From the sequence record OR352947.1: a DNA stretch of 64,000 bases; one strand, given 5' to 3'. Position 1 is the stretch's first letter. Every line of letters begins with the position of its first letter. The notes under the pieces are model-generated. The model was not told the DNA's origin and ran no database searches. It saw only the letters and a program-made list of their open reading frames with translations. Shown one piece after another: positions 35,479 to 39,214 of the stretch. The DNA comes from Escherichia phage AV117. The translations under genes and the position numbers were made by a program.

Positions 35479-35486
35479 GTTTACCT

Positions 35487-35945
35487 CTAGATTTTAATCA
35501 CTGCTTTAGAAGCTTTTCCTGGTAGTCGTTTACTGTTAATAATAGCCATTCTGCATTGAAGAGTCTTCATTTTGAATGCTGGATTTTCGCGACAAACTGT
35601 AAGTCCTAACCAAAGATTTCCGTCAGTTATTTCTAAACGGCCTGGGCGATATTCGACACCTTCGACAAAATCTTCATCAACATCTGGACGTGCCGGCATT
35701 GATAAAAATTCTGCAACTTCTTTAACATGATTTTTTACTTTACGAAATAATTCAAAAACGTAGTTCTCATCTATTTCTCTCTGGATGGCACGATCTAAGA
35801 GATGTTGAGAATACTTGATATGAAAGCCTGGTAATCCAAGAGACTTTGCAGCATCTTTTATACTGGCATTTATTTTGCGGAACTCCGTTTCAAAGATTCG
35901 ACGGAGTTTATTACGGCGGATAAAAACGTCTGAATTGATAGTCAT
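35487..35945 (-). CDS. regB: site-specific endoribonuclease RegB
   Basis: 152 aa; position and length match T4 RegB (153 aa); sequence recognised from memory. Confidence 0.8.
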   Translation of the reverse strand: MTINSDVFIRRNKLRRIFETEFRKINASIKDAAKSLGLPGFHIKYSQHLLDRAIQREIDENYVFELFRKVKNHVKEVAEFLSMPARPDVDEDFVEGVEYRPGRLEITDGNLWLGLTVCRENPAFKMKTLQCRMAIINSKRLPGKASKAVIKI

Positions 35946-35973
35946 TTTGATTTCTCCTCTAGTTGACAGGTCT

Positions 35974-36002
35974 ATAGTAACACATCTAGAGGAGAAGTAA
36001 AC
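35974..36002 (-). promoter_or_regulatory. early-type promoter (regB)
   Basis: minus-strand GTTTAC-N17-TACTAT. Confidence 0.55.
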
Positions 36003-36301
36003 TACTCTTTGAAAGGAATTAACTTTTTAACTGCTTTAGATACTTCGTCACGAACCTGGTGGAAGTTCTTGAGCTGTTCAAGGCGTTGTTCGTAATACGC
36101 AATCTCATCTTCTTCAAGACAATCGTCAGCGTCTTCTTTCAGATATGCCTTGTACTCATTAAAGAGGGCCCATAGGCGATTCTCAAAGTCATCAAGGCTT
36201 TGAATTTTCTTGTGCTTCGGAACAAGGCCAAAAGGATTGCTTTCAGTTATGCGTCGAGATGCTTCATAATGAGTTCCAAAGCCTGATAGGATTTGAGCCA
36301 T
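36002..36301 (-). CDS. hypothetical protein
   Basis: start set at ATG overlapping upstream stop (TAATG). Confidence 0.45.
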
Positions 36302-36546
36302 TAGTATTTTTCCTCTGGTTGAAATACCGCACGACAAGCCCACATACTAGCTTCCTTTAGGCGTTCTTTAGCACAGTTCAATTGGGACAAAGCAGTCAGA
36401 GCTTCAGGAGTATTTGCTGATAATGCTTCTTCTGCCAGGGCGTCTAGAATAAGTCCTAAACGAACTTCGGCATCTTTAATAGCGTTCACTTTACCGATTT
36501 TATCATCGGTATGCGGTTTGTAGCCTTTGATGTCTTCAATCGACAT
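36301..36546 (-). CDS. hypothetical protein
   Basis: start set at ATG 36546 preceded by GAGGAAA inside 3' end of upstream gene. Confidence 0.45.
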
Positions 36547-36760
36547 AAGGAATTTCCTCATCTGTGGCAAGGTCATATTCGACCAATTGGATAGGCTCAT
36601 TAATACCATATCCGCGTACAGTGATATCAGTTGTCGGATAGTTTCCAGTAATATCACCCGTTCTAAATGCTTCAATGAATGATTGCTCGCCTGAGCAACT
36701 AAACCAGGCGGCAAAACATTTTAAAACATCTTCAGACCCTTCTATAATCAATTTAGCCAT
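36536..36760 (-). CDS. hypothetical acidic protein
   Basis: 74 aa ORF directly downstream of GrcA-like gene. Confidence 0.45.
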   Translation of the reverse strand: MAKLIIEGSEDVLKCFAAWFSCSGEQSFIEAFRTGDITGNYPTTDITVRGYGINEPIQLVEYDLATDEEIPYVD

Positions 36761-37122
36761 TATAGACTCTCAGTAAAGGTACGAGCGATAACATCGCGCT
36801 GCTGTTCCGGAGTCAGAGAGTTAAAGCGAACTGCATAACCTGATACACGGATGGTCAGCTGCGGATATTTTTCCGGATGCTTAACTGCATCTTCCAGAGT
36901 TTCACGACGCAGAACGTTAACGTTCAGGTGTTGACCACCTTCAATTTTAACTTTAGGTTGATGTTCAATTTCAATTTCACGAGCATTCAAACCGTAGAAA
37001 ATTTCTGGGTCTACAATAGCGTCTTCTTTAAAAGTCTTAGAGACAATAATCCGGGCTTGAGTACCGTCTTCAAAATAAATAGTGCCTTTATGTTCACCTT
37101 CAAGAATTTGATATGCTTTCAT
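36760..37122 (-). CDS. autonomous glycyl-radical cofactor (GrcA/YfiD-like, T4 Y06I-type)
   Basis: 120 aa; glycyl-radical motif RVSGYAV; C-terminal ~60 aa ([59 protein letters not shown]) identical to E. coli GrcA as recalled. Confidence 0.85.
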
Positions 37123-37128
37123 ATAACC

Positions 37129-37437
37129 TCAATTAGAAAATAAATTTATCCAAGATTTTTCTTTAATCAAAAATGGGTCGGAATTAAACGCCATTAAACT
37201 TTGAGTGATTAATCCCTTAAATGGCCCATCAATAAATTCCATTTTGAAATGCGGAATACTAGTCATCAACCGTGCATTAGGAGCAGTACAAAGAACCTGC
37301 TGCCCTGCGAACGGACCTTTAGTCAAACGATATCGTTTAGGTTTAAAATGGTAAATCTCGTAATTTTCTACAAGAGCCCTTTTATTGCATACTTGGCTGT
37401 TATAACAATACTCAAAAACTTCAATAGTGGTCATCAT
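37129..37437 (-). CDS. hypothetical protein
   Basis: start set at ATG overlapping upstream stop. Confidence 0.45.
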   Translation of the reverse strand: MMTTIEVFEYCYNSQVCNKRALVENYEIYHFKPKRYRLTKGPFAGQQVLCTAPNARLMTSIPHFKMEFIDGPFKGLITQSLMAFNSDPFLIKEKSWINLFSN

Positions 37438-38246: not shown

Positions 38247-38549
38247 TTATTTACCTTTAATTACTTTAGCTGCTTCGATAGCCGCTTGCTGAAGGTCATC
38301 CATAGACATACCGAATTTAGAAGCAAAGTTATCAATTTTCCTTTCGACAGCATTCAAAGGCTTGGCCTGTTTACCTTCATTAGCGCCAGGAAGAGCGAGA
38401 ATACGCTCTTTGTCAATATAAAGGCTTACAAGTTTCTTACGGTCTTTATCGGACAAATCATGAAATGAATGGGCCTTTTTATTTATAGCGGCTTCTAATT
38501 TACCTGCACTCACTCGCGCTTCAGTAATAAATTCTTGATATGTTTTCAT
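38247..38549 (-). CDS. internal (capsid-packaged) protein with CTS
   Basis: 100 aa; N-terminal MKTYQEFITEA capsid-targeting sequence characteristic of T4 IP proteins. Confidence 0.7.
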   Translation of the reverse strand: MKTYQEFITEARVSAGKLEAAINKKAHSFHDLSDKDRKKLVSLYIDKERILALPGANEGKQAKPLNAVERKIDNFASKFGMSMDDLQQAAIEAAKVIKGK

Positions 38550-38575: not shown

Positions 38576-38890
38576 TTATTCTTTAGGGAAGTTTTTAGAG
38601 TATGCATCATAAAGTTTATTACCGATGCGACGGAAGACTTTAGCTGCAAAACGGTTTTCAGGGTTTTTAATCATGATTTGCATCATGTAAGTTCCTGCAT
38701 CCGAAAGAGCTTCTTCATAGTACCCATTAATTTCTTTAAGGGTTCTACGTTTACCACCAGGTCCATCAACAGTAATTTTCCATTTACCTGTAGAAGTGCG
38801 GCTCGGTGGTTCAACTTGTTCAATCCAAATATAACCGCCTTCAACGCGTTGGTTGGCGGATTCTGCAATAAATTCTTTATACGTTTTCAT
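38576..38890 (-). CDS. internal (capsid-packaged) protein with CTS
   Basis: 104 aa; N-terminal MKTYKEFIAESA. Confidence 0.7.
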   Translation of the reverse strand: MKTYKEFIAESANQRVEGGYIWIEQVEPPSRTSTGKWKITVDGPGGKRRTLKEINGYYEEALSDAGTYMMQIMIKNPENRFAAKVFRRIGNKLYDAYSKNFPKE

Positions 38891-38953: not shown

Positions 38954-39214
38954 TTAAGCTTTACCGCCAGAAATAATTCCGAAGTTGTTAAAATCGTATC
39001 CAATATCGTCAACATCTACTTTAGGGCTTGCTACAACATAAGCAATTTCACTACGTTTTGCATAGGTGTTGATTTCTTTACCATCGTCACCTAAGAAAGA
39101 ATACCCATTACGTTTTAATGAGCCAAAGTCTTCCGCATCACCAATGAAAGCTTTAACTTTAAATTTAGGACCTTTGGCATCTGCGTCAATGATAAATTCT
39201 TGATACATTTTCAT
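38954..39214 (-). CDS. internal (capsid-packaged) protein with CTS
   Basis: 86 aa; N-terminal MKMYQEFIIDA. Confidence 0.65.
   Translation of the reverse strand: MKMYQEFIIDADAKGPKFKVKAFIGDAEDFGSLKRNGYSFLGDDGKEINTYAKRSEIAYVVASPKVDVDDIGYDFNNFGIISGGKA

Follow-up and report, generated by a model that had tools for sequence, protein, structure and literature searches.

The window analysed here is a stretch of 64,000 nucleotides (nt) of Escherichia phage AV117 (sequence record OR352947.1). Its ORF list holds an open reading frame (ORF) of 120 amino acids (aa) on the minus strand (Table 1). This ORF had been predicted to be a GrcA-like glycyl-radical cofactor, and that identification is upheld here. 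It is the ortholog of T4 vs.6, whose protein is Vs.6 or Y06I, because its neighbourhood is the vs.8-to-vs.1 block of T4. The order of the genes is the same: vs.8-vs.7-vs.6-vs.5-vs.4-vs.3-regB-vs.1. The T4 gene is 93% identical to it at the nt level. The product matches PHROG 1209 over residues 1-120 (5.9e-63), and it matches Pfam Gly_radical (PF01228) over residues 59-101 with 67.3 bits (2e-18), above the gathering cutoff of 22.2. The gene and its biochemical role are already known from T4, so this is not a new system. Few other T4 genes have a clear counterpart in the host. The nearest deposited copy by nt identity is that of phage SSE1 (98.9%), and some 640 phage records of Tequatrovirus/Mosigvirus type match, in bands of 90-99% identity. 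Over its whole length the window shares 96-98% identity with phages such as JN02, JK36 and TU01. Since the closest vs.6 copies (SSE1, TU01, O157 typing phage 6 and LF82-9) are all classified as Mosigvirus, the AV117 window belongs to that genus, which is distinct from T4's Tequatrovirus.

We argue that this spare-part gene is very probably a mosaic, an old phage GrcA homolog with its radical segment overwritten from E. coli grcA. Residues 61-120 of Vs.6 are identical to residues 68-127 of E. coli GrcA at 60/60 positions, including a stretch of 29 residues, just as the original prediction had stated for the last 60 or so residues. It had also named synonymous identity to grcA near 100% as the sign of a recent transfer, and the nucleotide alignment gives this result. 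From nt 179 to nt 353 the gene matches E. coli grcA at 174/175 nt, and the sole mismatch is at nt 330. Codons 61-109 match the grcA of E. coli 503025 at 147/147 nt. None of the 37 synonymous sites of this core differs from E. coli grcA (synonymous divergence, dS, of 0). Four differences lie 3' of the 151-nt exact run, at nt 330, 354, 357 and 360 in the last 12 codons, and all are synonymous. The last 183 nt of the gene were found at 96.7-97.8% identity in all 5426 of 5426 complete E. coli genomes. The next-best hosts among 80 other enterobacterial grcA genes are Escherichia sp. (96.7%) and Citrobacter (90.7%). Among 84 enterobacterial grcA genes in all, that of E. coli is the closest. The patch is 97.8% identical to grcA versus 79.5% to pflB DNA, so grcA and not pflB is the donor. 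The G+C content at third codon positions (GC3) is 0.20 in the N-terminal half (N-half) of vs.6, 0.38 in its C-terminal half (C-half) and 0.41 in E. coli grcA. The 5' junction of the patch is sharp, at nt 179. Synonymous identity to the donor is far higher in the patch than in the adjacent parts of the gene and the flanks, which is the pattern of a gene-conversion tract.

The patch stops short of the end of the gene. The tail GAG AGT CTA TAA is absent from all 5426 complete E. coli genomes, but three phages, KP15, Roth22 and RB16, have it, and their C-halves reach only 78-84% identity to any host gene. Because it is shared with unconverted phages and lacking in E. coli, the last 10 nt of vs.6 are an older, phage-type tail. 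The tail carries a Shine-Dalgarno-like GAGAG and overlaps the start of vs.5, and the equivalent GAGG is annotated as a downstream ribosome-binding site in phage KLB8. The TAA stop of vs.6 overlaps the ATG of vs.5 as TAATG. The patch therefore has phage-type sequence on both sides in one reading frame. This implies that host DNA replaced an internal segment of a phage homolog that was already there, presumably by homologous recombination, and not that a host fragment was fused to unrelated DNA.

The first 60 residues had been thought unrelated to GrcA, and this has to be corrected. Aligned ungapped from the C-terminus, 13/60 residues of the N-half are identical to GrcA. BLASTP aligns the two N-halves at 33% identity over 40 aa (E 1e-5), hhalign of the N-half profiles (10 phage versus 14 host sequences) gives a probability of 95.7% (E 8.7e-9, 48 columns), and the phmmer alignment to YfiD (another name of GrcA) extends over residues 21-120. 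The N-half is thus a diverged GrcA homolog and not a foreign sequence. It is under purifying selection between the window and T4 (ratio of nonsynonymous to synonymous divergence, dN/dS, of 0.16). Phages of ~150 kb (L104-L109) have N-halves that are intermediate between the host GrcA and T4 Vs.6 types. Nt 1-178 and the last 10 nt represent an old phage GrcA lineage that is shared with Slopekvirus, Pseudotevenvirus, Karamvirus, Jiaodavirus, Krischvirus and T5-like phages. The original prediction favoured recent recombination with the host's grcA over descent from an ancient phage lineage. The recombination stands for the C-half, on the synonymous identity, the jump in GC3 and the sharp 5' junction. 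The either/or does not stand, as both histories meet in one gene.

GrcA-like genes are widespread beyond the T4-like phages. They occur in T5-like SP15 (L005, 320-688), in L128-L154, in jumbo phages of 345-357 kb (L110-L113) and in the L104-L109 phages. The T5-like and T4-like copies have an MKAYQ start in common.

Table 1. Features at the vs.6 locus of the AV117 window, in window coordinates
Feature	Coordinates	Strand	Basis
vs.6 (Y06I) ortholog, predicted phage autonomous glycyl-radical cofactor, GrcA/YfiD homolog	36760..37122	-	ORF list, Pfam, PHROG, synteny with T4
Probable phage-lineage N-half, vs.6 nt 1-178, codons 1-60	36945..37122	-	AT-rich, GC3 0.20, hhalign to host N-halves
Probable host-derived patch, vs.6 nt 179-353, coding for the glycyl-radical domain	36770..36944	-	codon-by-codon comparison, 174/175 nt
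Perfect-identity run of 151 nt to grcA of E. coli 503025, vs.6 nt 179-329	36794..36944	-	longest exact run
Gly95 codon, predicted radical glycine (RVSG*YAVRF), equivalent to PFL Gly734	36838..36840	-	alignment to PFL 696-759 and YfiD 6owr
Retained phage-type tail, ..G AGT CTA TAA	36760..36769	-	shared with KP15, Roth22, RB16
GAGG Shine-Dalgarno of vs.6, overlapping the TGA stop of vs.7	37127..37130	-	read directly from the sequence
vs.5 ortholog, downstream of vs.6, coupled via the TAATG overlap	36536..36760	-	ORF list, PHROG 1986, T4 annotation

The conversion event is not private to AV117. The same patch with the same 5' junction is found in T4 and in 24 further Tequatrovirus, Mosigvirus and metagenomic copies. 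Like the window protein, T4 Vs.6 has 120 aa, is encoded between vs.7 and vs.5, and has an E. coli-identical C-half. The two proteins differ by seven aa, all of them in the N-half. T4 has T219/C282 with a TTG in the tail, whereas the window has T219/A282, which is an E. coli allele, with CTA in the tail. The surroundings of vs.6 in T4 are only 71-88% identical to the window. Nt and third-position identities between the two are 71% and 50% for vs.5, 72% and 52% for vs.3, 76% and 64% for vs.7, 76% and 59% for regB, and 88% and 76% for vs.8. For the C-half of vs.6 they are 97.3% and 93%, and its third-position identity differs from that of vs.5 with a Fisher p of 2e-8. Within vs.6 itself the window and T4 differ in the N-half at a dS of 0.40, against 0.028 for the core and 0.82 for the tail. 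The two N-half types contrast in the same way across 24 copies: their third positions diverge by 0.21 over the N-half, by 0.04 over the core and by 0.18 over the tail. Half of the phage copies (13/26) match one of only four sampled E. coli alleles without a single difference in the core. Because divergence of the core is far under that of the N-half, the tail and the flanking genes, the patch must have arisen long after Mosigvirus and Tequatrovirus, the genera in which it is found, had diverged.

A second host genus gives a parallel case. Jiaodavirus (KP179, KLB8, 15882-3, Phi_KR1 and IMG/VR locus L112) infects Klebsiella. Its N-half is T4-like (73% aa identity, GC3 0.20) and its C-half has a GC3 of 0.54-0.59. 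Klebsiella grcA alleles were obtained via two related protein clusters, P0123, which bears the name K. variicola, and P0122. The 147-nt core of the Jiaodavirus genes is 89-97% identical to grcA of the K. pneumoniae complex versus 80-86% to E. coli, and it is 84-90% identical to other Klebsiella/Raoultella species. The core of 15882-3 matches Klebsiella grcA at 143/147 nt with a 77-nt exact run, which is as close as two Klebsiella alleles come to each other (142/147). The Jiaodavirus proteins have the Klebsiella-type residues LLDAVEH, while the E. coli type is LEDAVKH. Their patch has its 5' junction at the same codon, and its 3' end comes ~10 nt earlier in the gene than that of the E. coli-phage patch. 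In both the E. coli phages and Jiaodavirus, then, the patch is closest to the phage's own host species. An earlier result of no host tracking for KP179 (best 88% among 80 GTDB representative grcA genes, without the K. pneumoniae complex) was overturned by the added Klebsiella alleles. Because the Jiaodavirus core matches Klebsiella grcA and the core of the E. coli phages matches E. coli, host DNA must have been copied into phages independently at least twice, from two genera of host.

These residues follow the host even without nucleotide identity: RB16 is of the E. coli type here and KP15 of the Klebsiella type. By inference this suggests selection for a radical domain that matches the host's own PflA and PflB. 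Two side observations concern the Klebsiella sequences. The KP179-like L112 (601-963, UViG_2974754850) has a 1-nt deletion in the N-half of vs.6 that truncates the ORF, so that the copy is a pseudogene unless the deletion is a sequencing error. A chromosomal-type grcA is found on Klebsiella sp. WOUb02 'plasmid unnamed4' (L028, 275,668 bp); this record may be a chromid or a contig with the wrong label, or the gene may truly have been transferred.

Other origins of the host-identical segment are worth considering. It might be an ancient acquisition that was held identical to E. coli by selection on synonymous sites, through codon usage or mRNA structure. In favour of this idea, grcA shows high expression and biased codon use, and its protein segment does not vary. 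However, RB16 and RB43 also infect E. coli. They encode the same C-half protein (RB16) or one that is two residues off (RB43) at 82% nt identity, and therefore selection at the nucleotide level is no explanation. With KP15 included, the same or nearly the same protein is kept at 78-84%. Karamvirus copies are at 75-80% nt identity, with a GC3 of 0.21-0.30. The tail of vs.6 has a dS of 0.77-0.82, Klebsiella phages follow Klebsiella codons and not E. coli codons, and convergence at 147/147 bases is not credible. We therefore give synonymous selection almost no weight. Transfer in the opposite direction, where the 3' half of E. coli grcA came from a T-even phage, is equally hard to believe. Identity alone has no direction, and both directions have been proposed for cyanophage psbA (PMC1484495). 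But the host C-half tracks host taxonomy (E. coli 100%, Escherichia sp. about 97-98%, Citrobacter 91%, Salmonella 84%). GC3 is even across the host gene (0.39, 0.41) and jumps in the phage gene (0.20 to 0.38). The codons of the patch are of the E. coli high-expression type (CTG, CGT, CCG), and grcA sits in a conserved chromosomal context, ung-grcA-eamB. Host taxonomy, uniform composition and conserved context together polarize the transfer as host to phage. Least credible of all is an assembly artefact that put host reads into the phage genome. Assemblers do stumble over the shared repeat, as two near-full-length T-even metagenome contigs attest. In L169 (OCHD01000040.1, 7755-8540 onward) the sequence beyond the stop of vs.6 is that of the E. 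coli grcA terminator and of eamB (98% identity), and it ends ~1.7 kb on, apparently with the contig. L169 was a candidate for a larger host capture, but we treated it as a chimeric assembly via the shared repeat. L170 (OBRH01000009.1) ends inside the patch, at vs.6 nt 331. Neither contig was used as evidence. The patch in the window, however, lies inside one intact ORF with phage sequence on both sides, and the same structure with its phage-specific tail is found in 26 independent genomes, including T4.

The number of conversions is a closer question. It is quite possible, though somewhat less likely than not, that T-even phages repeatedly re-copy the radical segment from their current enterobacterial host while keeping the N-half and the vs.5 coupling. 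This would be ongoing conversion in virulent phages. The E. coli polymorphisms argue for it. Nt 219 (T/C) and nt 282 (A/C) vary among five sampled E. coli alleles, the same bases vary in the phages, and all three E. coli haplotypes at these sites are found among them. All four of four combinations occur between N-half type and site 282, and also between tail sites 354 and 357, which are within 3 nt. A more doubtful but still serious history is that one T-even phage recently took the segment from E. coli grcA in a single conversion, after which it spread from phage to phage in co-infections; the Klebsiella patch would remain separate even then. It would account for the exact same 5' junction in all 26 E. 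coli-phage copies, for an N-half that is 89% identical between the genera and so above the flanking genes (71-88%), and for core variants that are mainly singletons in a star-like pattern. It does not readily account for the recurrence of the E. coli polymorphisms and haplotypes, or for the four combinations. The fixed 5' junction is also expected under recurrent conversion, as homology collapses upstream of nt 179.

It must be noted that several points weigh against repeated conversion, or against the proposed history as a whole. Nt 219 and nt 282 are fourfold-degenerate and have three alleles in the phages, so parallel mutation is possible. The identical 5' junction in the E. coli phages fits separate entry as well as a single entry with phage-phage spread. 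Nt 1-180 of vs.6 in Escherichia phage Pu-Krd-SF7 (L179) are a mosaic of T4-type and Mosigvirus-type sequence, which is phage-phage recombination. T-even phages degrade host DNA, so host-templated repair must be rare or early. The species of the Klebsiella donor alleles is known solely from the cluster name 'K. variicola'. Conversion in laboratory time on K-12 was considered and is unsupported, as the MG1655 allele is C219/C282 and T4 has T219/C282.

The history we propose for the mosaic is as follows. An old AT-rich phage GrcA homolog would have supplied nt 1-178 and the last 10 nt. Nt 179-353 would then have been overwritten by gene conversion, which is homologous recombination with the host chromosome during infection, with E. 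coli grcA as the template. The nt identity, the junctions, the shift in composition, the age contrast and the host specificity are direct observations; this mechanism is inferred from them, as is selection for a radical domain with an exact fit to the PflA and PflB of the current host. The overwrite would be much younger than the split of Mosigvirus and Tequatrovirus. A parallel overwrite would have happened in the Klebsiella-infecting Jiaodavirus with Klebsiella grcA as donor.

The overwritten segment is the part that would carry the radical. As cited in PMC8683613, Knappe's laboratory found that T4 Y06I (in vitro) and E. coli YfiD receive a glycyl radical from the activase of pyruvate formate-lyase (PFL) and restore O2-cleaved PFL (Wagner et al. 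2001, BBRC 285:456). The reference list of PMC13450708 also includes that work. These two proteins are the ones validated as spare parts for PFL (PMC8683613). Residues 57-120 of the window protein align to PFL 696-759 at ~78% identity, and residues 21-120 align to the YfiD chain 6owr by phmmer. The C-terminal radical domain of PflB (PDB 2PFL, 1H16) is the piece lost by oxygen cleavage, and Vs.6 57-120 is its counterpart. The match is limited to PFL 696-759, and the catalytic barrel is absent. Like E. coli GrcA (YfiD, PDB 6OWR), Vs.6 has a radical glycine and a PFL-like beta-strand. The RVxG[FWY] fingerprint is present as R92-V93-S94-G95-Y96 and is invariant in a 46-sequence alignment. Like other spare-part proteins it is a stand-alone product, 120 aa or ~14 kDa, encoded between separate genes.

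The two N-halves are another matter. That of Vs.6 is ~30% identical to E. coli GrcA and 7 residues shorter, and it is AT-rich and conserved among phages. The N-half of YfiD is reported as disordered by nuclear magnetic resonance, yet it is required to bind cleaved PFL (PMC8683613). In contrast, an AlphaFold2 model predicts residues 1-50 of Vs.6 as a small compact beta domain (pLDDT about 90). The C-half of the model has a pLDDT of 44-79 and superposes on PFL at 0.8 A over 43 columns. Foldseek with the N-half gives weak KOW/SH3-like matches (E 0.2-0.5), which we take as a lead only. By analogy with YfiD 1-60, the phage-specific N-half may recognise cleaved PFL.

These features, with orthology to T4 Y06I at 93% identity, point to AV117 Vs.6 as a PFL spare part. 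Host activase PflA would place a glycyl radical on Gly95 of the 14-kDa Vs.6 after infection. The radical-bearing protein would dock into PflB whose own radical domain was cut off by oxygen. The repaired PFL would restore acetyl-CoA and formate output, and hence ATP for the phage, under microaerobic conditions. Two points tell against too firm a statement. The function assigned to the AV117 protein derives from its orthology to T4 Y06I. The protein also scores 159.1 bits over residues 18-120 against the NCBIfam GrcA equivalog TIGR04365, below the cutoff of 170 (E. coli GrcA scores 234 bits). The shortfall is due to the diverged N-half. We argue that Vs.6 probably works like GrcA but belongs to a distinct phage subfamily. 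A link to the phage anaerobic ribonucleotide reductase and nucleotide metabolism (Nolan et al. 2006, PMC1524935) was set aside, given a radical domain that matches GrcA exactly and PflB at 78%.

Annotation of the gene in sequence records is inconsistent: 'hypothetical protein', 'pyruvate formate-lyase', 'autonomous glycyl radical cofactor' and 'acetyltransferase-like protein' are all in use. PHROG 1209 is labelled as unknown function despite the biochemical characterisation of 2001. Around the gene, positions 35486..36760 (vs.5, vs.4, vs.3 and regB) are 71-81% identical to T4 (L002, 1863-3142) with third-position identity of 50-65%, and this small-ORF block appears to be among the fast-evolving parts of T-even genomes. 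Further along the window, adjacent small minus-strand ORFs at 38247..38549, 38576..38890 and 38954..39214 open with MKTYQEFI, MKTYKEFI and MKMYQEFI. Two of these three match PHROGs of internal virion or head proteins. We take their common N-terminus to be similar to the capsid-targeting sequence of the T4 internal proteins.

The closest evolutionary precedent for the patch is the intragenic host-phage recombination of psbA and psbD in T4-like cyanophages (Sullivan et al. 2006, PMC1484495; Zeidner et al. 2005). Those are also host-like metabolic genes with patchy G+C content, and segments were exchanged between host and phage copies. The vs.6 case differs in that the donor tract is short (~175 nt), near base-perfect, and covers only the host-interacting radical domain. 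It also differs in being found in virulent coliphages that destroy host DNA, with a parallel patch from another host genus at the same junction. We found no published account of a nucleotide mosaic or of host tracking in vs.6, only functional papers and a Pfam-level note on the gene; our coverage of the literature is incomplete and an earlier mention is possible.

We conclude that the gene itself, vs.6, is ordinary and already characterised, and that what sets it apart is a gene conversion from host to phage which is unusually clean and, it appears, repeated. A near-perfect 175-nt host copy inside an older phage gene is a clear case of host-to-phage transfer, and in Klebsiella phages a second host genus has supplied a copy of its own at that spot. 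There are practical consequences. The patch could mark the recent host of a T-even phage, and the tract breaks or chimerises metagenome assemblies of these phages. If repeated re-copying is true, the radical module stays base-for-base identical to the host's, through ongoing, selectable conversion from host to virus despite the destruction of host DNA. T4 and E. coli would then be a system in which host-to-phage gene conversion could be measured. It could also be asked whether an auxiliary metabolic protein must match the host activase and enzyme residue for residue.

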